Part shown: positions 11,125 to 37,363 of the stretch, in pieces
Position numbering within the stretch: position 1 is the first letter of the stretch
How the letters are laid out: every line of letters starts with the position of its first letter
Assembly: GCA_000004695.1 (NCBI GenBank)
Contig: CM000151.3
Coordinates: 2,816,001 to 2,880,000, forward strand
Length of the DNA stretch: 64,000 nt
Reading direction: 5' to 3'
DNA from: Dictyostelium discoideum
Lineage: Eukaryota
Program-made: the position numbers and the translations under genes
Notes under the pieces: generated by a model
Seen by the model: only the letters and a program-made list of their open reading frames with translations
Databases searched by the model: none
What the model was told of the DNA's origin: nothing

Positions 11125-11652
11125 ATTCTATAATAATAGTAAAACATCCTATTTCTTTCATTAATTAAACCATCTTCTTCTTCTTCTTCTTGAATTGAAT
11201 GAGATAATAAATCAAAGTGACCTTCATCGTCTTCATCCTATCAGAATTCATATTGTCAAAATTTGTTGAAATTTGTTGTTCAACTTTTTGTTTTTTTTTT
11301 TCCATTTCAAAATTTTTTTTATTAAATATATTGTTATTGAGGTGTAGGATAAGATATTACATTAAACTATACCGCAAAAAAAAAAAAAAAAATAATAAAA
11401 AAAAAAAAAAAAATTCTGCACATGTCCATATAATTTGTTTTTATTTATTTTTATTTTTAAAAAAAAAAAACCTTTTTATTGATTTTTTGAATTGAGCTTT
11501 TGAGGGTTAAAATAATCTTTTTTTTTTTTTTCTTAAAATTTTAAGCTCATCCTTTTTTAATTATTATTATTTTATTCTAAAAATAGATTTTTATTTTTTT
11601 TTTATTTTATTTTATTTTATTTTATTTTATTTTATTTTTTTAAAATATTTTT

Positions 11653-11683
<31 letters not shown>

Positions 11684-12003
11684 CTATTTTTATTCCATTT
11701 CCTATTTTAAAATTTCCGCTAATAATTCCTCCAATTGTAGGTAAATTGTTTGTAAATTGTATAAATGTTTTTTTTGAAGTAAGAACGTTTTTCATTTTTA
11801 AATTATATTGAAATAATTGTGTGAATAAAAAAAATTTTAAAAAAAAATTAACAAAAGAAATCAAAAAAAATAAAATAAAAAAAAAAAAAATTTAAAATAT
11901 TGTTAACAATATCAAAGCAATTTATCAATTTACATTTATGTTACACATCAACTTTATATTGACACGCCAAAAAAAAATCACCCCATTTTTTAACACACAC
12001 ACA

Positions 12004-12207
12004 AACACTAACACGCTGTATAACGAATATTATTATTATTATACACACAAAGTGAGCTCAGATGGGTATTTTATTTAATAAAATTTTTATGTTGACATAA
12101 TTTTTTATTATTTGAAAAATATATTTACTTATAACTTAGAATAAATTAATAATTTTCAATTGAAAATAAAGAATATTATAATATTCTTTTTACAGCGTGT
12201 TAGTGTT
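12004..12207 (+). repeat. Perfect 17-bp inverted repeat (aacactaacacgctgta / tacagcgtgttagtgtt) flanking an about 170-bp AT-rich segment that itself contains a 20-bp palindrome (12169..12188)
   Basis: 12004..12020 is the exact reverse complement of 12191..12207. MITE-like or a hairpin-forming promoter element about 220 bp upstream of gene 12429. Confidence 0.7.
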
Positions 12208-12391
12208 GTGCTATGATTGTGCATAAAAATAAAGTTTATATATATAATTTTTATTCCCCTGCAATTTTTTTTTTATTTATTTTTTTATTTAATATTATTT
12301 TTTTTAATTACTATTATTTTTTTTCTAATTACTATTATTTTTTTTTAAATAAACATCCTATTAAAATTAATTATTTAACACATATAATAAA

Positions 12392-12422
<31 letters not shown>

Positions 12423-12428
12423 TAAACA

Positions 12429-12557
12429 ATGGATGGATTTCCAGAAAACTTTCTTAATATAGTACTAGAAGATGTCTTACTAGACCTTTATCAAAACAAT
12501 CATCTATTTACTGATTGTATATATTATTTTAATTAATAAACTTTTATTATTATTATA

Positions 12558-12642
<85 letters not shown>

Positions 12643-13225
12643 TTATTAATAGTAAAATTTGAAAAAAATAGGTAATGAATTGTGGGATAATATTTTTAAT
12701 TTTACAATAACATTAGAAAATGAAATTAATAATAATAATAATATTAATAATAATGGAAATTACTCCCGAGAACTTATTATAACTTTAAAAACTTATACAT
12801 ATAATACACGTTACCATTTTCATAAATTTGTAAGAAGTAATAAGTGGTTTATTAAACGATTTAAAGAAATTAATGGGGTTTTTATAACATTAAATCACCA
12901 AGTAAATAATAATCAAATGTTACAAAATTTCGATCAGGTATTAAATGATATAAAAATCTTAAGAATATTACTAATAACCAAGCATTACGATCAATTATTA
13001 CTCAATACAAGTAGGTCAATAGAAACAGATGTAATTTTTACATTTGGTGAAATTCCATTCACATTTTTTGATGATGATCAAATCCATAATTGGAGGAATC
13101 AAAATTTAATTCGAATTTACAATAAATTCAAAGGATATGAAGAAATTGGCCTACGTTTAATGGAAATGGTGGATACTATTGCATACAAAATAATCAATTG
13201 TGAAGAACCAAATTTTCAGATTTAA
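12429..13225 (+). CDS. Small hypothetical protein, member 1 of a 3-gene lineage-specific paralog family; 2 exons: 12429..12516, 12672..13225
   Basis: Exon 1 is MDGFPENFLNIVLEDVLLDLYQNNHLFTD plus 1 nt, with a GTATAT donor. The intron ends ...aaaaaatag. Exon 2 completes a Cys codon (T|GT) and continues NELWDNIF...HNWRNQNLIRIYNKFKGYEEIGLRLMEMVDTIAYKII. Same architecture and C-terminal '(F/H)xWR(N/Q/D)Q' block as the genes at 13694 and 29293. Confidence 0.6.
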
Positions 13226-13693
13226 TTTTCCCAATTTTTTTTTTTTTTTTTTTTTTTTAAATATTTTTTTTTTTTTATTATTTTGTTTAAATAATATTTT
13301 ATTATATTCGGCACTATTCCTTTCAACGGATATATTTTTTTTTCATTTTTTTTTTTTATTTTTTAAGTTTTTTTTTTTTTTTTCCTTTTTTATATTAATA
13401 ATATTAATCATAAAATAGGGATGATGGCAAAAACAATGTTATGTGTGTGTTTTTTGTTTTTTATTTTTATTTTGTTCTTTGAAACAAAATCAAAAAAGGA
13501 AATGTGTGGGGGTGTGTGTTTTGATGTTTTTTTTTTATTTTTTTTATTTTTTTTTGTTTTTTTATTTTAATTATTATTTCGCAACCACACCACCCTTTTT
13601 AATAAATAAATTTTAATTTTTTTTTCCATTTTTTTTTTTTTTTTTTCACACCAACATAAATTTTTTTATACCATTTGTTTAATTTTTATCTCA

Positions 13694-14426
13694 ATGGAAG
13701 CTAATAAAACACAAGTAGACCCAAACCAGATTTGTAAGTATAGAATATTAAAAATAAAACACCAATAAAAATAAAAAACCAATAAAAATAAAAAACTATT
13801 AAAAAAAATAAAAACATATAGGTATATCAAATTTTGATGAAATCAGTTTGGATATTGTAACTATTTACGATGGGTTACATACAATAAAATTTAACGATGA
13901 AAAAGCATTTCAACAGTATAAAGAAGTTATCAGCTTTTTAAATAATTGGAGACATACACATACCGATAGGTATCATAATTTTTTCAATTCTGTGAATTGG
14001 TATGAAAGTAGATTAAAAGAAATTGATCAATTATGTTCAACACTAGTGGGTTATAAAATTAATGCTATGCTTTCAAAGAATGATAAAGAATTATTTTCAA
14101 AAGATTTAAATCAAATTTATGAATCAGTTTCAAAACAAAGATTACTTTTGTTAACTAATTTCTACAATTCATCACTCAATAATCAATATGAATCAATTTC
14201 GCAATCAATAAAAACTATAAATTTATCCTTCATTCCACAAATTCCTTTGGATTTAAATCTCGATATTAAAAATCAAAAAAATCAAATTTTCGAATGGAGG
14301 CAGTCAACAATTTCAGAATTAAATCAATCATTGGATGGTTTTGAAGTTAGTTTATTGGAGTTAATAGAATATATAGAATTATATTCATATACCCTCATTA
14401 ATTTGGGTAATATTACATTAGGTTAG
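13694..14426 (+). CDS. Small hypothetical protein, member 2 of the same paralog family; 2 exons: 13694..13733, 13822..14426
   Basis: Exon 1 is MEANKTQVDPNQI plus T, with a GTAAGT donor. The acceptor is ...catatag. The split codon T|GT gives Cys, then ISNFDEISLDIVTIYDGLHTIKF...QIFEWRQSTISELNQSLDGFEVSLLELIEYIELYSYTLINLGNITLG. Confidence 0.6.
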
Positions 14427-14446
14427 TTTTTTTCTTTTGTAATTAA

Positions 14447-14498
<52 letters not shown>

Positions 14499-14640
14499 TA
14501 GAAATAATAGTAAATAGTTTGTATATATTTTTGTAAATAACTTTGTAAAAAATTTTTGTAAATAATATATGTGCATAAATAAATAACCTCACTCAGTATT
14601 AATTGTACATAAAAAATAGTAATAATAATAAAAAAAAAAA

Positions 14641-14762
14641 AAATTATCGATTTCCAAAAACATAACAGTAAATAATTAAAAATCAAATAGAAATCAATTT
14701 AATAAAATTTATTCATTTCAGTATTGCGACCCCCAAAAATAATATAATAGTAATAAATAATA

Positions 14763-14836
<74 letters not shown>

Positions 14837-15330
14837 TATTTCCAAAAATTTTTCATTTCAGTATTGTGACCCAAAAATAGTAATAATTAAAAAAAAAAAA
14901 ATAAAAAAAAAAAAAAAAAAAAAAAAAATATCGAATTTCCAAAAACATAACAGGAAAGAATTAAAATTCAAATAGAAATCAATTTAATAAAATTCATTCA
15001 TTTCAGTATTGCGACCACCCAAAAATAAAATAGTAATAATAAAAAAAAAATCGAATTTCCAAAAACATAGTTCAACCGATAACAGTAAAGAATTAAAAAT
15101 CGAATTTCCAAAAACACAGTTTAATCGATAACAGTAAAGAATTAAAAATCAAATAGAAATCAACTTAGTTATTCTATTGGCCTACTATGAGCAAACAGCC
15201 GCCTGCCAACAGCTGGCGACCGCTGGGCTAAAAAAACACAGTTTAATCGATAACAGTAAAGAATTAAAAATCAAATAGAAATCAACTTAGTTATTCATTT
15301 CAGTATTGCGACTACCCAACACCTAGTTTT
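14641..15330 (+). mobile_element. Tandem array of at least 5 truncated non-LTR retrotransposon 3'-end units (TRE/DRE-like 'C-module'-type), each ending in an oligo/poly(A) tail; contains a GC-rich 62-bp insertion (15170..15231)
   Basis: Repeated unit core '(t)cgaatttccaaaaaca(t/c)a...ataacagtaaagaattaaaaatcaaatagaaatcaa(t/c)tt...attcatttcagtattgcgac(c)cccaaaaata', each followed by A-runs (up to about 66 A at 14767..14832). The units are truncated at different 5' positions, as expected for 5'-truncated LINE-like insertions. Confidence 0.4.
14767..14832 (+). repeat. Poly(A) homopolymer about 66 nt (retroelement A-tail)
   Basis: Uninterrupted A-run following a TRE-like 3'-end unit. Confidence 0.9.
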
Positions 15331-15843
15331 TATTTTACAAATAAAAAAATTTAATTTTTAATTTTTTATTTTTAATTTAAATGAAAAATTTTTTTCATTT
15401 AAATTAAAAATAAAAAATTAAAAAAAAAAAAATTTTAAAAAAAAAAAAAAAAAAAAAAAACTTTTTTTTTTTTCCCATTTTTTTTTTTTTTTTTTTTTTT
15501 TTTCATCACTATGGTTTCTATTTTTATATCTTCAAAATTTAGTCCAATTTTAGCACAAAAATTTTTTTTTTTTTTTTAATTCTATTTAAATCATTTCACC
15601 ACTTGGTGTGTGTGTGTTTTTTTTTTTGAAAAAAACAAAAAAAAAAAAAAAAGGTTTTATTTATTTTCATTGAAAAAAAAAAAAAAAAAAAAAAAAATAA
15701 TTTATCACAAAATGATGATGTACCACATTTTTTCTTTTTTATAATTTTTTTTTTTTTTTTTGTTTTATTATTTTACAAATATAATGTGGGTTGAAAAGTG
15801 AAAAAATAAGAAATAAAAAAAAAAAAAAGCAAAAATAAAAAAT

Positions 15844-20595
<4,752 letters not shown>

Positions 20596-20913
20596 ATAAT
20601 TTAAAAAATAAAAATAAAAATAATAATAATAAAAATGATAAAAATGATAATAATAATAATACTATTTTTGGATTTTTTTATTAAAAATGATAACAAATTT
20701 TATTTTTTATTTTTAGTGGTCCCCCATTCCCACCCACCCCAATTGATTCCCCAATCAATTTTACCCAAAATTAAAAAATGAATTTATTTTTAATTTAATT
20801 TTTAATTTTTAATTTTTAATTTTTTAATTTTTTTTTTTCCTTATATTTTTTTTTTTTTTTTTTTCTACTCTTATTTTTTTCTTTATTATAAGATAATTCA
20901 ATAAAATAAAAAA

Positions 20914-21842
20914 ATGAATATAGAAGGTGACGCAAGCCAATTAGAGAATAATAAAAACAGTGATATTAAAAATAATGTTTTGGTAATTTTTTTTTTTTTT
21001 TTTTTTTTCTTTTCTTTTCTTTCAAATACTTATACTCTTTTTTTAATTTTAAATATTAAAGGAACACATATCAAAAATTATAAAAAAAATTTGTTATATC
21101 ATTGTTTGGAATGTAAATGATATGAATGCAATAAGCAATAAATTAAAATTAAAAGAAACTTTAACTCCATTTGGATTTGAAGTCATTTGTTTCGATAATA
21201 TAAATGATGATTTAAGAAATGTATTTAAAACAATTGTAAAAGATCTAAAGTCTGATAATACAAAAGCAATGTTTTTATTTTATATTTATGGGCCATACCA
21301 ATTAGAAGATAATAAAATTAAACTTTCATCATTAGTTGAAATATATCAAGGTTCTAAAATAACCCGTGAAATAAAATTTTTTTTAAATAGTTTGATAGGT
21401 TTATTAAAAACAAAAGAAGATGAATTCAGTATGTATATTTTTTTTAATTTTCTCAACAATTTATATATAAAATAATTACCAAAATATTTTTTTTTTTTTT
21501 TTCAAACTAAATAATTTTAAGAAAATTTACATTTCAAAAAAGGAGTAATGCTATCATGGGAAAAGATATTTATTTTAGATTTATTTTATAATAATAACAA
21601 TAACAATAATAATAATAACCCATTAGAAAAATTATTTCAACTTTATAATTCTCCCAATGAAATATTAAACCTACCAACAATGGATAGTAAGTATTTTTAA
21701 ATAATTATCATTTGTAAATTTTAAATAATAATAATAATAATAATAATAATTTTAAGATACTAATTTATTTATTTTTAAGATATTTCATTTATACATTCAC
21801 ATTTATTATTTGATTATTTGAATAATAATAATAATTATATTA

Positions 21843-21878
<36 letters not shown>

Positions 21879-22720
21879 CAAATAATAATATTAATAATAA
21901 TAATTCAACTACTACTACAACAACATCTTCATCATATAGAATTAATGATAATACAACAACTACTACAACTACAATTGTAACAACTACAACAATTAATGGT
22001 GAAGCTTCACCATTTTTAGAATTACTATGTGATACATTAGAATCAAATGATAAAGAAGTATTATCAAATAAGATTGTTAAAATGAAGGGTATTATTTTAG
22101 ATAATTACATTACAAAGTATTTTGGTAATTTAAATAATTTAGAAACTCTTTTGAAGAAAAATTACCAAATGATTCCATATAACTTAAAAAATCAATTATT
22201 TGACAATTTTAATATATTTTTTGGTTCACAATCAAGTGGATCAATAATCTTTAATTCAAATAGCCAAGTTAATACTAATAGTAATAATAAAATTGAAACT
22301 TATAAAGAAAAACCTGGAAATAGAAAAGTGATATGTTTAATTTTCAATGAAAATGAAAATGAATTAAAAAATCAAAATATAATAGAAATTAAAAAATCAT
22401 TTTTAAAAAAAGGCACTGAATGTTTTACCTTTAGTAATATATATTCATTTCATCGAAAAGTTTATTCAATTCTTCCTCTATATCCAGAATTAGATATTAT
22501 ACTTTATTATCATTCAACCAACGAAGATGACAGAAATGAAAAATTTTTTAATTCAATAAATGAATTTAAAAATGATAATATATATAAATCAGAACCTTCA
22601 AAAATACTTGTCCCAACCTTTAATAATAACAATAAATCACCTATTAACTCATTTAATGTTGAAAAAGAATTTGATAATCTAAAAATCAAAATTGAAAGTA
22701 TTAATAACAATAACGATAAC

Positions 22721-22818
<98 letters not shown>

Positions 22819-22885
22819 GAATATTAAAGTTATAAAATCAATGATCGAAATATTAAAATTTCACCAGAAAAAAACAAGTATGTAA
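20914..22885 (+). CDS. Asn-rich hypothetical protein with two copies of a '(K/E)VIC(F/L)xFNxNxxxLxN' module; 4 exons: 20914..20982, 21062..21428, 21522..21686, 21780..22885
   Basis: Exon phases are consistent across three AT-rich GT..AG introns (donors GTAATT, GTATGT, GTAAGT; acceptors attaaag, ttttaag, tttttaag). Spliced protein: MNIEGDASQLENNKNSDIKNNVL|EHISKIIKK...KTKEDEF|K|NLHFKKGVMLSW...PTMD|N|ISFIHSHLLFDYLNNNNNYINS... The track ORFs 20914..21120, 21122..21475 and 21818..22885 are pieces of it. Confidence 0.5.
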
Positions 22886-23047
22886 TAATCAATTGATTAT
22901 TAAATTATAATAGGTTTAAAATATAATTAATATTAAAATATATATATGTTTTTTTTTATTTCCAAAAAAAAAAAAAAAGAAAATGATAATTTTAAAAAAG
23001 GTAAATTCACTTCATTTAAAAATTTATTTATTTTAGATGTTTATGAT

Positions 23048-23604
23048 ATGGAAAAAGAAGCAAAATGTTTTTTCAATGAACTTTATAAAGGAGAATTTAA
23101 TAATGATATAATAAAAGAAATTTCAAAGGATACAGATTTTGGTAAATAATATATATTTAATTTTATTTTTAGAAGAAAAAAAAAAAAAAAAAAAAAATCA
23201 AAATCAAAAACAAAAGTTTGTTCTAATTAAAATAATTATTAGGTAATATTTATTTAGTTTCTCCAATTTTAAGGTTAAATAGAGATCTAGGTTGTGAGTC
23301 TAATGAATGTTTGACAGTTCTAACTTCATCAATATGTGATAGAATTAATTCAAATGATTCACCAGGAAGAACTCTGTCAGAAATTAGAGAAACTATTAGA
23401 TTTGACATATTGGACTCATATATTAATCATTTTATTGGTGATGTTATAAAATATATTTTAGAAGAAGAGAATATCGACATAGGTGCCTCTAGTATTGATG
23501 GAAATCTTAAGCACTCAAATAGTTTTGAAATCCTTTTTGGTGATCCAAGTAGTAGTGATTTAAAAATTGTACCTTTTAATAATAATAATAATAATAGTCA
23601 ATAA
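23048..23604 (+). CDS. Small hypothetical protein (about 147 aa); 2 exons: 23048..23141, 23258..23604
   Basis: ATG in the aaaATGG context. Exon 1 is MEKEAKCFFNELYKGEFNNDIIKEISKDTDF plus G, with a GTAAAT donor. The acceptor is tatttag. The G|TT split codon (Val) continues SPILRLNRDLGCESNECLTVLTSSICDRINSNDSPGRTLSEIRETIRFDILDSYINHFIGDVIKYILEEENIDIG... Non-low-complexity coding composition. Confidence 0.4.
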
Positions 23605-23697
23605 TAAAATAAATAATAATAATAGTCAATAAAATTTTAACAAATCTCCTGTCTCTTTTCTACAATTTTGTTTTTTTTTTTTAAAAAATTAAATAAT

Positions 23698-24585
23698 TTA
23701 TTTTATATATTTTGATAAGAATTTTTTAGCAAAATCACTTCTAGTTGTATCATTAATAAATCTCTTCTTTACAACGGGTTCATCTCTAGCTTGATTTTTA
23801 AAAACACCATCGTCAAACCAACTATTTCAATAGAAAAAAAAAAGAAAAATGTTAATAATAATACTAAACCAAACATGAAATAATAAATTAAATATTACAT
23901 ACTTTTTCTTTATAGAATAATCACCACTACTATTATTATTGTTATTATTACTATTGTTATTATTTAATAAAGGATTACCATGAGCGACTCTTTCTAAACG
24001 CTCTTTTTCTAATTCTTGTTGTCTCTCTAATTCTTTTTTCTTTTGTTGTTCTGCTTTTTCTTTTTTAATTTTTTCAAGTTCTTTCATTAATTCTTCTTCA
24101 TCATCTGAATCATCTGAATCATCAGAGTCATCTGAATCATTATTTTCACTATTATCTGAATGATCTTTATCAACTTTTTTAAATTTATTCTTTGAACCAT
24201 TGTTATCATCATCATCATCATCATCATCATCACTATCACTATCACTATCATCGCTATCTGTATCATCATCGTCTATACCTTTTCTCTTCTTTATATTTGA
24301 TGTTGTAGTTGTAGTTGTAGTTGATGTTTTATTATTTTCCTCTTCTTCTTCATTTATTAATCTATTCTTTAATTTTAATAATTCTTTATCATTTTCAATT
24401 GAGGTATCTTCAAATTTAATACCAGATTTCTTTTCTAATGATTTTAATTCTCTTTGTCTTAATTCTTCTTTTTGTCTATCTTTATCATTCTTGTCAGTGT
24501 CATCTTTTCTTGTTTTTAGGTATGTGCTTCCCATACCAACACGAAGTGATGATACTAGAACTGATGGTACTCTTTTATCTGCCAT
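23698..24585 (-). CDS. cwc15: Spliceosome-associated protein Cwc15/Cwf15 (AD-002 homolog); 2 exons: 23903..24585, 23698..23821
   Basis: '[40 protein letters not shown]' aligns with human CWC15 '[40 protein letters not shown]'. After splicing the C-terminus is '...[40 protein letters not shown]', matching '[35 protein letters not shown]'. Intron 23822..23902 has a GTATGT donor and gaaatag acceptor, phase 2. Confidence 0.85.
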
Positions 24586-24908
24586 TTTTTTTTTATTTGT
24601 TTGTTTTTTATTTATTATTTATTTATTTTTTTATTATTATCCCTTTTGTATACAATTTATTTTTAAAAAACCAAAAAAAAAAAAAAAAATAAAAAAAAAA
24701 AAAATTAATTAATGGTAACGATAAATCTCTTGTTGAATTTTATTTTATTTTTTTTTTTTTTTTTTTTTGAAATTTTTATTTTTTTATTTTTTTTTATTAT
24801 TTTTTTTATTTTTTTATTTTTTTTTTTTTATCAAAAAATCCACTCTTTAGTTATTCTATTTTTAGTTTGTTATTTAAATTTTTTTTTTTATTTTTTTTTG
24901 AACATTAA

Positions 24909-25820
24909 TTACATATAGGCATACTCTTTAGCTTGCTTTAATCCTCCAATAATGCCATGTAGTAGTTCGGCTAATGAATTTCTGTTGATTAAATAATCAT
25001 GTTCGCTATAATTTTCAACCTGGTCTTTAAAATTTTGATAGTACTCTTGTACATATGAACTAAAATGTGTAAAATAATTATTTAAAATTGTGAATGATAA
25101 TTTTGTAATTTCAATTTTACCCAATTGTAATGATACTAGACAAAATTCTGATATTTTAGTTGGCCTGTAATAGTTAAAAAAAAAATCCTCATTTAAAGAC
25201 TTTTCACTCTTGATTACTTTAAATATATAATTTATTGATGTTAATTCTAAATTAAGACAGCACCATTTAATTATAAATTTTGGAAAATTCAATTCTTCTT
25301 TACCACCTGAACCAATTAATTCCAACTCTTTTAAAAATAAATCTTTTCTTTTTAGTAAAATGAATAGTTGTAAATTACGTTGAATAACTCCCTGACATTT
25401 TGAGTAACCAAATATTTCTACTTCTTCTTTATATGGACGATATATAACCGAATCAATTAAATCATCAAATGGTGATTGTTGAATGAATTCTAAAGATATT
25501 GTTTTAATAGTTTTTTTAATTGTTTTATGAATATCTCCTTTATCTTTTAAATATTCATACAATATTGGTGATCTTTTAAATATTAAGAATAGTTTTAATT
25601 GTTTATTTTCAATTTGAAATTCATATTGATTTTCAATTAAAACATCATACATTTGGTTAATTATTTCAAAATCCTCTCCTTTTTCATAATTTCTAAAATT
25701 ACAATAAAATAAAACTTCTAATAATCTTAAATAAATTTTTAAATTTGCTTGCTGTGTTTTAAAAGAGTCTTCAATACTATTATTATTATTATAATTATTA
25801 TTATTATTATTATTATTATA

Positions 25821-25901
<81 letters not shown>

Positions 25902-27739
25902 TATTTTAATTATTTCTCTACATTTATTTATTTGAATAATTATTAAATTAATAAATAATGGGTCATATTTATTTGATTTTATATTGAAATCCAACTCTTT
26001 ATTTGTAAAGATTAAATTCTCGACAACCAATCTTGATAAATTATAATTTAATGTTTTTGATGATAAATTATAATTTAATGTTTTTGATAATAAATCTTTA
26101 ATTAATTCTTTATTTAAATTGATTTTAATTTTTGAGAGATTAAACTTTATATGTTCATTTGAATTGGTTCTATTATTATATTGATCATCTTTATAATAAC
26201 CATTGTTAGCTATATATTCAACTAATTTGTAAAGATCATTAGAAGGATCACCCATTTGACTATCTAATATAAAATTGAACATTGTATTATATTCTTGGTA
26301 TATTAATTCATCATCTTCATTTAATAATCTTTTATTTAAAGAAAATAGTACTTTATGTAAATAATTTCCAATTTTAAGACCCAAAGAGTCAAAATATTTA
26401 AAATCATTGATATTACTTTCAGCAAATGCCTTTAAAAATGGTACAAAATAAAAGCCATTTGAATTTTTTGTTATTGAATGTAATTTTATAAAATAATTTG
26501 ATAATTCAACCGAATCATAATAAAAATCAATTGTATTAATTTTATATAATTTATAGTCCATATCTTCTATCCAATTACTAAGCAAATTTATTGTTTCAAT
26601 ATCTTTAGCAATTGAAAGTACATTACAATTACCAATACTTGATAAAATTGGATTCCAGTGCAATGGTAAATTATTTTTATATTTATTTGGTATGAAACTA
26701 TATAATTCTTCATATGTTGATTTATCAGTTTGTAACATTATATTTAAAATTGTATCTTTAATATATAGATTTCCTTCTTCTTCTTCTTCTTCTTCTTCTT
26801 CTTCTTCTTCTTCTTCTTCTTCTTCTTCTTCTTCTTCTTCTTCTTCTTCTTCTTCTTCTTCTTCTTTTTCTTCTTCTTCTTCTTCATCATAATCATTATC
26901 ATCATCACCATCTTCTTCTTCTTTTTCTTCTTCTTCTTCTTCATTCAAACAATGGTTATAATTTATTTTTGATATAAGGAGTCTTAAGAATTCGATTGAT
27001 CTTTTTAAATTTGATATTATTTTATTTGCTTTATTGTTATTGCCATGGTAAACTTTTAAATGATATATGGTGAAGTCAATTTGTTTAAATATTGATGGTA
27101 TGTAATTGTAAAGGCAATAATCGATTGCAATTTCTTTAAAATTATCAATTGAAATTAATTCATCACCTATATTATCATGATATTTTGATAAATATAATTC
27201 AAATAATGTTTTTGATTTTGATAAAATGATTAATTGTTTTAATAATTCTTGAATAGTTTCATCATCATTTTGTTTTAATAATGATTCTAATGGTGGATGT
27301 TCTCCCCTATATAATTTAATACATTCAAATAATATTTCTAATTTATCTTTATTATTATTATTGTTATTATTAAAATTTTCAATTTCTTTATCAAATATGA
27401 TTTTGATATAATCTAATAATTTATAATTTGTTTTGAAATTTGTTGAAACTTCTAATTTTTCTAAATCTATTGCTAATTTTGCACCAATCCTTTTTTTACA
27501 ATTCCTATTATTTATGAAAAATGAAACATATTCATTAAATTGATTTGGTTGTTGTTCTTGTTGTTGACCTATTAATATAAGATGGTCTAACATAATATTC
27601 TCTAATGTAATACCATGAACTCTGTTTCCAGTCATACTCATTTTGTTGAAACCATAAAAACCATCTCCATTCCATGATTCCATAGTATATGATTCAAAAG
27701 TTTTATCTTTATTTATTTTAGTATTATCATCATCACCAC

Positions 27740-27827
<88 letters not shown>

Positions 27828-28367
27828 ATTTTTATTATTATTATTTTTATTATTAATATAATTTAAGGATTCAAATAATATTTTAATAACTTCATAACTA
27901 CCATGGTATAACGCTAATTGGATTATTTTATCATCATCTAATGATTTATAATCTCTTTTTTCAAGTATTAATTGTAATATTTCTTTAAATAATTCAATTT
28001 TAATAGAGATATTATATATATTATAATTAGAATAATATTCTTCCTTTCTTAATAATTGAATATTATTATTACCATTATATTCACTTTCATTAATTAAATA
28101 GAGTTCGATTAAATGCCTGATACTAGAGTAGGTAATAAAAACATATTCATCATTTATTAATTTTGATTTTAATAATTGAAATTGGTTATTTTTAATCATC
28201 CATTTTAAACTATAAATATATTTAAATTTAATTCTTTTATCTTTATCAAATAAAAAATTGATTTCATTGTTGTTGAATAATTCACTGTTTTCCATGATTT
28301 CAAATATTAAATTAAATAAATATTTGTTGTGAAACACTTTCCAAAATAGAATTTCATTATTATTCAT
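24909..28367 (-). CDS. Large (1152 aa) hypothetical protein with poly-Asn and long poly-Glu tracts; no recognisable domain
   Basis: Single uninterrupted ORF. The ATG (MNNNEILFWKVFHNKYLF...) is preceded by an in-frame stop. The (GAA)n run at 26775..26935 encodes about 50 consecutive Glu. The non-repeat parts have good coding composition. Confidence 0.7.
26775..26935 (-). repeat. (GAA)n on the coding strand, about 160 nt, encoding a poly-Glu tract within the 1152-aa protein
   Basis: Plus strand (CTT)n. In-frame EEEE... in ORF 24909..28367. Confidence 0.9.
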
Positions 28368-28383
28368 TATTATTCATTATTAT

Positions 28384-28478
<95 letters not shown>

Positions 28479-28718
28479 TTTATTATTGTTTAATATGTGT
28501 AAAAAAAAAATAAAAAAGAAATACCGCCAACAATAAAACCATAAATTAATTTGAAAAAAAAAAAAATTGGAAAAAATACAAATTTCTTGTGAAAATATCA
28601 AAAAAAAAATAAAAAATTATTTTAACTTGGTTAATATTAAAAAACATTAAAATAAAATTAATTTTTTTGATGGTATGAAGCAATACCAATGATGGGAATA
28701 TATTAAAAAAAAAAAAAT

Positions 28719-29292: not shown

Positions 29293-29956
29293 TTATTGTA
29301 AATAGAAAAAATTAATATCCAAATTATTAATGTTTAAAAGATTATATATGATTTTGTTAATTAAATTATTTATATATTGAAATATCTCTTTAAAGTCAAC
29401 TAGCAATTCTGATAATCGTTTTATAGTTTGGTCTCTCCATTCAAACAAATGATCGGATGAAATTGGAATTTGATTTATATTAAATGAAAATTCATTATTA
29501 TGATTATTATTAATAATTTGTAAATTATTATTTAAAATGAAATTATAATGATTTATAATTAAATGTTTAGTTAATTGTGAAATTCCAATTTTAATTATTT
29601 GAAGAAAACTAGAAAAAGTATTTTTATAATTGTTTTCTAATTCTTTATAAATTTGAAGATTTTCATCTTGTATAATAACTTTATAGATTGGAAATATTTC
29701 TTCAAACCTATCCATAAACCAATCTTTTTTTTCATTTTTAAAAAAACAATAATTAATATCATAATAAATTTTTGAATGAAAACCCCAATCATATAAACTT
29801 TTCATTATTTCTTTTAAATATGAAAAAATAATTTTTGGTAAATACCCCAATGTATTTGATTCATCAGTTTTTTTTGAAATATTAATTTGAATTTTATCCC
29901 ATATATCTATACCTAAAATTTTTAATATACATAATTAATAAAATTTTAATATACAT

Positions 29957-29991
<35 letters not shown>

Positions 29992-30049
29992 ATACATTTT
30001 TCATAATGACAAGAAATATTATTTTCTAAATTTATAAATATATTCATTT
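29293..30049 (-). CDS. Small hypothetical protein, member 3 of the paralog family (see 12429 and 13694); 2 exons: 29996..30049, 29293..29912
   Basis: Exon 1 is MNIFINLENNISCHYEK plus T, with a GTATGG donor. Intron 29913..29995 has acceptor ttttag. The split codon T|GT gives Cys, then IDIWDKIQINISKKTDESNTLGYLPKIIF...HLFEWRDQTIKRLSELLVDFKEIFQYINNLINKII... It has the same 'Cys-codon-split' exon architecture as the two plus-strand paralogs. Confidence 0.55.

Positions 30050-35915: not shown

Positions 35916-37363
<1,448 letters not shown>

Follow-up and report, generated by a model that had tools for sequence, protein, structure and literature searches.

Three small genes on chromosome 2 of Dictyostelium discoideum raise the question of what a shared gene structure means, and of how related copies came to lie two side by side and one apart on the other strand. 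They lie in a stretch of 64,000 nt (GCA_000004695.1, contig CM000151.3, positions 2,816,001 to 2,880,000, hereafter the window, whose numbering is used unless another locus is named), in a region present twice in strain AX4. We call them g1 (12429-13225), g2 (13694-14426) and g3 (29293-30047, minus strand). An earlier note had described them as a three-member, expanding, amoebozoan family characterised by a cysteine codon split by the intron.

Our answer is that g1, g2 and g3 are very likely three of four old paralogues of one two-exon gene. In the proposed history, the first exon of the ancestral gene would have been very short and followed by a phase-1 intron close to where the first long helix begins. 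Tandem duplication would have occurred before D. discoideum, D. citrinum, D. dimigraforme and D. firmibasis split, and all copies would have inherited the place of the intron, the TGT cysteine codon being kept, with one exception, in the g1, g2 and g3 lineages and leucine or isoleucine being found in the fourth. Close relatives still have a single same-strand array between the genes for a SpoU-type methylase and a Roco kinase. In the discoideum clade, an inversion of about 16.5 kb with one breakpoint inside the array would have left g3 about 15 kb from g1 and g2 and on the other strand; the fourth D. discoideum member is on chromosome 1. Divergence has been fast, with purifying selection acting on g2.

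The first step concerns the gene models. For each of the three genes, a single full-length, collinear solution was found among all GT..AG introns that keep the reading frame open:

12429..12516, plus strand: g1 exon 1, 29 codons and the first base (T) of the split Cys30 codon; the only GT..AG solution collinear with the paralogues
12517..12671, plus strand: g1 intron, 155 nt, phase 1, GTATAT..ATAG, largely made up of an (ATT)n microsatellite
12672..13225, plus strand: g1 exon 2, GT of Cys30, 183 codons and the stop codon
12845-12871, 13052-13057 and 13088-13123, plus strand: g1 motifs WFIKRFKEI, IP and NWRNQNLIRIYN, respectively
13694..13733, plus strand: exon 1 of g2 (DDB_G0273311/DDB_G0273637), 13 codons and the T of the split Cys14 codon
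13734..13821, plus strand: g2 intron, 88 nt, phase 1, GTAAGT..ATAG
13822..14426, plus strand: g2 exon 2, GT of Cys14, 200 codons and the stop codon
13998-14024, 14232-14246 and 14286-14321, plus strand: g2 motifs WYESRLKEI, IPQIP and IFEWRQSTISEL, respectively
29996..30047, minus strand: exon 1 of g3 (DDB_G0273313/DDB_G0273627), 17 codons and the T of the split Cys18 codon, with the ATG at 30047
29913..29995, minus strand: g3 intron, 83 nt, phase 1, GTATGG..TTAG
29293..29912, minus strand: g3 exon 2, GT of Cys18, 205 codons and the stop codon
29721-29695, 29469-29464 and 29448-29413, minus strand: g3 motifs WFMDRFEEI, IP and LFEWRDQTIKRL, respectively

The predicted products have 213 (g1), 214 (g2) and 223 (g3) residues. 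The three two-exon structures with very short first exons (29, 13 and 17 codons plus one base) thus agree with the earlier description, except that the start of g3 had been placed at 30049, two bases too far. The splice junctions (slashes mark the exon borders), ATT/GTATAT..ATAG/GT in g1, TTT/GTAAGT..ATAG/GT in g2 and AAT/GTATGG..TTAG/GT in g3, confirm that a T/GT cysteine codon is divided by the intron in all three genes. In the window, whose G+C content is about 20%, exons reached a GC fraction of 0.17-0.35 versus 0.03-0.125 in introns (0.28 versus 0.03 for exon 1 and the intron of g1), the exception being the 52-nt first exon of g3 at 0.115. Moreover, the spliced translations of g2 and g3 are identical to the curated AX4 proteins of DDB_G0273311/DDB_G0273637 (Q557D3) and DDB_G0273313/DDB_G0273627 (Q557D8), which have AX4, UniProt and RefSeq entries annotated as "hypothetical". 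In the collections searched, g1 had no AX4 protein record, and the only identical match to its translation was KAM9952249.1, from a 2025 strain assembly. The intact two-exon gene g1 may be absent from the reference annotation.

The spliced proteins could be aligned in collinear fashion almost from end to end (21-27% identity); 25 columns are invariant, among them C30, W88, R92, E95, I96, I157, P158, W170 and R171. Smith-Waterman scores lay 9.0-14.6 standard deviations above those of 500 composition-preserving shuffles (z-scores), and BLASTP E-values ranged from 1e-5 to 1e-11. The conserved blocks comprise C-x3-[WF]-D just 3' of the intron, W-[FY]-x2-R-[FL]-[KE]-E-I in the middle of the protein, an I-P loop, and the C-terminal block [FN]-W-R-[NQD]-[QS]-[NT]. 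Because several such blocks recur in a collinear alignment, the similarity is not a coincidence of low complexity; the C-terminal WR block pointed out earlier is genuine and is one block among several. Across the family, collinear full-length homology and the motifs were found together, with profile E-values of 1e-8 to 1e-78. No known domain was recognised, in line with the earlier reading: in a Pfam-A scan none of the three proteins reached a gathering threshold (best 12-14 bits versus cut-offs of 21-27), precomputed Pfam assignments were empty for all homologues, and a search of Protein Data Bank (PDB) sequences with a 16-sequence profile gave no significant match (best E 0.056). Additionally, neither tblastn nor a six-frame profile hidden Markov model (HMM) detected further family copies in the window.

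The position of the intron provides a second line of evidence. Among 19 family genes modelled at the DNA level in eight assemblies, all 19 carry a phase-1 intron at one and the same alignment column (column 31 of alignment A3). In the seven g1-clade genes its place is constant and its length variable. The codon that it splits is T/GT in 15 of the 16 genes of the g1, g2 and g3 clades, including all six g2 orthologues, and G/AT (Asp) in D. dimigraforme g1; in the fourth clade it is T/TA (Leu) twice and A/TT (Ile) once. A constant intron place with a varying codon is what duplication of a two-exon gene at the DNA level predicts. The split cysteine codon is thus an inherited phase-1 intron position with no special meaning, and it is not a feature in itself, as had been supposed. 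The cysteine itself is conserved where the first long helix starts, and no link to splicing is needed to account for it.

Family size and age were assessed with a seven-sequence profile searched against 1.84 billion representative proteins, which matched nine proteins, all from Dictyostelium. Two word-indexed searches (5.8 billion proteins; the second with a wider alignment) added no further taxon. The family was found in D. discoideum, D. cf. discoideum, D. citrinum, D. dimigraforme and D. firmibasis only. The lineage-restricted and uncharacterised nature of the family, together with its common two-exon structure, is supported. The label "amoebozoan" is too wide, since all matches fall in these five very close species and none in D. 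purpureum or Polysphondylium, by the profile search or in the flank of the SpoU gene. Nor does the family have three members in D. discoideum: a fourth, DDB_G0270630 (Q55D88) on chromosome 1, was recovered at a profile E of 1.3e-8 with all family motifs and the same intron place.

A neighbour-joining tree of 22 proteins (203 columns, 200 bootstraps) resolved four paralogue clades, with bootstrap values of 100 for g1, 100 for g2, 99 for g3 and 98 for the DDB_G0270630 clade. Because each clade spans several species, the duplications are older than these species. The family is thus not visibly expanding, as had been suggested, and change since speciation has been loss and truncation rather than gain. 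Specifically, D. firmibasis has only an unannotated g1-clade gene (11376..12126 of its locus, L011), one fourth-clade gene interrupted by an in-frame stop, and no more than a relic of g3. The fourth-clade array copies end about 70 residues early in D. firmibasis (L011, 10001-10800), D. dimigraforme (L004, 7746-8285) and one D. citrinum strain (L007, 7385-8009), and the array copy is absent in another D. citrinum strain. In the D. firmibasis copy, the missing C-terminal motif, HLIKDWKN, lies in frame 3' of the TAA stop. The D. discoideum member of this clade, on chromosome 1, is full-length. In addition, the two-exon model of D. dimigraforme g2 (L004, 11164-12079) meets stops directly 3' of EWRNQ, with homology resuming in another frame, which could reflect a frameshift, an extra intron or an assembly error.

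Gene order accounts for the position of g3. In D. citrinum (L001 and L007), D. dimigraforme (L004) and D. firmibasis (L011), the genes run in the order HSP70 (+), SpoU methylase (-), g3 (+), a fourth-clade member where present, g1 (+), g2 (+), Roco kinase (+), a gene of about 740 residues (+) and Cwf15 (-). In the window and three other discoideum-clade assemblies (L002, L005 and L006), it is FNIP, G6PD, g1 (+), g2 (+), Roco (+), a gene of about 722 residues (+) and Cwf15 (-). The window extends further than the other three loci and continues with a large open reading frame (ORF) (-), g3 (-), SpoU (+) and HSP70 (-), and beyond HSP70 the genes (ORFs at 35916 and 38787) follow the order seen in D. 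citrinum. Since this outer flank is collinear, it is the block from g1 to the large ORF that is inverted in the discoideum clade:

about 12200..28500, no strand assigned: inverted block of about 16.5 kb, placed by comparing gene order and strands
content of the inverted block: g1, g2, Roco kinase (15844-20595), the gene of about 722 residues, Cwf15 (23827-24585) and the large ORF (24909-28367)

One breakpoint lies between g3 and g1. An inversion of about 16.5 kb thus sets the D. discoideum clade apart from D. citrinum, D. dimigraforme and D. firmibasis. The third copy does lie inverted about 15 kb away, as had been noted, and it is this rearrangement, not an independent dispersed duplication, that explains it. 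Upstream of g1, a segment of about 235 bp (11665-11899) matches three other discoideum-clade assemblies in reverse orientation at 78-88% identity, representing a small local inversion or a dispersed repeat near the breakpoint. Two mobile-element genes also lie next to the array in relatives: a DDE_1 transposase upstream of g1 in D. cf. discoideum (L002, 5807-7662) and, in D. dimigraforme (L004, 1277-3436), a reverse transcriptase (RVT_1) located between HSP70 and SpoU.

The g1-g3 proteins are acidic (isoelectric point, pI, 4.9-5.9) and of about 25 kDa. Neither a signal peptide nor a transmembrane segment was found in the family proteins, whose N-termini are not hydrophobic and whose maximum 19-residue Kyte-Doolittle hydropathy is 1.08; a check for secretion signals was thus negative. 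AlphaFold models were all-helical for both g2 (predicted local distance difference test, pLDDT, 88.7; predicted template modelling score, pTM, 0.85) and g1 (pLDDT 71.2; pTM 0.69). The family proteins are accordingly predicted, with good confidence, to be soluble, elongated, up-and-down four-helix bundles. The models point to a fold shared within the family and give no pointer to function, and a Foldseek search returned no significant structural match (best E 0.084, template modelling score 0.26). Because the bundle is plain and soluble, with conserved Trp, Arg and Glu positions and no catalytic signature, we tentatively suggest a non-enzymatic role in binding a partner, as a scaffold, adaptor or regulator. 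The persistence of distinct paralogues over a long time might hint at divided or cooperating roles.

Rates of evolution were compared by pairwise Nei-Gojobori estimates of nonsynonymous (dN) and synonymous (dS) divergence. For g2, dN/dS was 0.05-0.42, and the protein is 97% identical to that of lineage ACTFIW. For g1, dN/dS was 0.31-0.95 (about 0.5-0.95 within the discoideum clade), with 74% identity and a dN of 0.132 to ACTFIW, and for g3 it was about 0.5. Among the neighbours, the Roco kinase gave 0.13-0.23 (dN 0.015 to ACTFIW) and HSP70 gave 0.01-0.04. Between D. discoideum and D. dimigraforme, the family proteins share 35-39% identity, versus 86% for the Roco kinase. Meanwhile, the ORFs of about 200 codons are intact in all lineages examined, that of g1 in all seven g1-clade genes; at 20% GC, the calculated probability that a random 200-codon frame is open by chance is about 2e-9. 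These values indicate clear purifying selection on g2, weak constraint on g1 and g3, and much faster evolution of the family than of the genes beside it.

Several side observations came from the same comparisons. The gene of about 722 residues (21818-22885) and the Cwf15 homologue (23827-24585) gave dN/dS values of 0.65-0.91 in comparisons with close lineages; these values are possibly artefactual, owing to low-complexity sequence in the alignments. The g1 orthologue in L006 (8640-9531) has about 42 consecutive Asn codons, versus NNN in AX4, in a helix-linking region, a large coding microsatellite expansion. The flanks in L005 and L006, both labelled D. discoideum (tags ACTFIW and ACTFIR), are only about 91% identical in nucleotides to the window, and dS in conserved neighbours is about 0.06-0.11. 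This divergence is far above that expected within a species, so that the two may be cryptic lineages.

Some of the evidence weighs against the four-paralogue account or loosens parts of it. The predicted exon joins rest on frame logic, orthologue conservation and existing annotation, and a Logan contig carrying g2, checked for a spliced transcript, proved to be genomic, with the intron retained. The tree was built by neighbour joining on 203 columns only. The extent of the inverted block is approximate, no outgroup showed its second breakpoint (on the G6PD side), and a search for inverted repeats at the breakpoints found only trinucleotide-repeat noise. Against D. citrinum (L001), dS was 0.8-1.2 for g1 and g2, versus 0.14-0.35 in the neighbours and 0.32 in g3, which may reflect saturation or misalignment at high dN. 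Finally, the suggested binding role rests on absences (of an enzyme motif, a membrane segment and a specific structural relative) and could be wrong.

Among other explanations, the one that fares best concerns origin, namely that the family arose de novo, out of AT-rich non-coding DNA lying between SpoU and Roco in the ancestor of the D. discoideum species group. We consider this unlikely, although the distribution is compatible with it: no homologue was found beyond the five close species in the profile and word searches (1.84e9 and 5.8e9 proteins), and the fold is the simplest helical bundle, resembling designed proteins. Furthermore, annotation and a six-frame profile HMM showed no family member in the SpoU flank of D. 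purpureum (L009) or Polysphondylium violaceum (L010). This outgroup result is weak, however, since the relevant side of SpoU is not syntenic and the D. purpureum contig ends 560 bp past SpoU. With family identity already down to 35-39% at the distance of D. dimigraforme, where Roco retains 86%, homologues at the distance of D. purpureum would be undetectable, and fast divergence alone can therefore explain the narrow range.

The fast evolution might instead reflect a role in conflict (for example in social cheating, in kin discrimination, or in defence against bacteria or parasites), g1 then being under diversifying selection. Measured against one and the same lineage, the dN of g1 is about nine times as high as that of the neighbouring Roco kinase (0.132 versus 0.015), pairwise dN/dS rises to 0.95, and copies have been lost or truncated between species. 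However, dN/dS never exceeded 1 in these pairwise estimates, and the unrelated neighbours (the ORF at 21818 and Cwf15) reach similar values of 0.65-0.9, so that high ratios are not special to the family at this locus; we hold such a role to be distinctly improbable. Decidedly doubtful, too, is the combination of both ideas, in which a de novo birth in the SpoU-Roco interval would have yielded a confidently folded bundle and four lineages, with g1 diversifying in a conflict-type role. Were it true, the family would make the recent birth of a protein tractable to study in an organism amenable to genetics.

A further possibility is that one or more of the three genes are not functional protein-coding genes, g1 in particular being a decaying duplicate. 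Consistent with decay, g1 is known only as a prediction in a 2025 strain assembly, its dN/dS is 0.31-0.95, it shares 74% identity with a lineage in which g2 keeps 97%, and the fourth-clade copies in the arrays of D. firmibasis, D. dimigraforme and D. citrinum are shortened or contain an in-frame stop. Nevertheless, its ORF and splice sites are intact in seven lineages at dS values up to about 0.9, which would be very unlikely without selection in a genome of 78-80% AT; it retains the family motifs, and its AlphaFold model is helical (pTM 0.69). We regard this possibility as very improbable. That the split cysteine codon is itself functional, with the cysteine formed only after correct splicing or T/GT selected as a regulatory or splicing signal, is extremely unlikely: T/GT does persist in 15 of 16 g1, g2 and g3 genes despite 35-50% protein identity between orthologues, and exon 2 begins with GTA in all three window genes, but the intron stays where the codon has changed to Asp, Leu or Ile, paralogues duplicated as DNA are expected to share intron position and phase, and a conserved cysteine at the start of helix 1 requires no link to splicing.

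The descent of the three genes from one two-exon ancestor by old tandem duplication thus remains the preferred reading. It unites four "hypothetical" D. discoideum genes in one family with a fold class, motifs and a gene structure, flags an intact g1 (12429-13225) without a protein record in the AX4 reference set, and documents the inversion of about 16.5 kb between the D. discoideum clade and its nearest relatives. Literature searches with all gene and UniProt identifiers found no mention of the members, and a broader search on Dictyostelium orphan genes yielded nothing specific. The family is undescribed but ordinary, being fast-evolving and taxonomically restricted, and its members apart from g1 were already annotated as hypothetical proteins. 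Wider biological interest would depend on the demonstration of a phenotype, a conflict-type role or a de novo origin, and the practical value of the finding is small.

Comparison with known systems places the family more closely. Tetraspan membrane bundles (claudin, connexin, LRRC8, tetraspanin and synaptophysin) were rejected as relatives because they have four hydrophobic transmembrane helices, whereas the maximum hydropathy here is 1.08. Alpha-pore-forming toxins of the ClyA, Hbl, Nhe and AhlC type, which are secreted proteins with a hydrophobic head or tongue on a helical-bundle tail, were likewise rejected, as these features were not found. Generic four-helix bundles (single-chain ROP, 1yo7; designed proteins 8oyv and 9u78; soluble AhlC, 6h2d) share 3-12% sequence identity with the family, and the designed bundles and ROP score equally well. 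Unlike these, the Dictyostelium proteins contain an additional two helices, together with a conserved I-P loop that is not helical; the likeness is the resemblance of simple folds and not a sign of common descent or common function.

Within the family, DDB_G0270630, which has array relatives in D. firmibasis, D. dimigraforme and D. citrinum, shares with g1-g3 the W-F-x-x-R-F, Y-N-x-x-L, I-P and D-W-R-N-Q motifs, the short first exon and the phase-1 intron at the same column, and its length (227 residues) is similar. It differs in its split codon, which encodes Leu (T/TA), in being basic (pI 9.2 versus 4.9-5.9), and in being unlinked to the array in D. discoideum. Like orphan gene families in general, this family occupies a narrow clade, encodes short proteins in few exons, evolves fast and changes in copy number between close species. 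Unlike them, it is predicted to be well folded (pLDDT 89), has kept four paralogue lineages across species, and includes in g2 a member under clear purifying selection.

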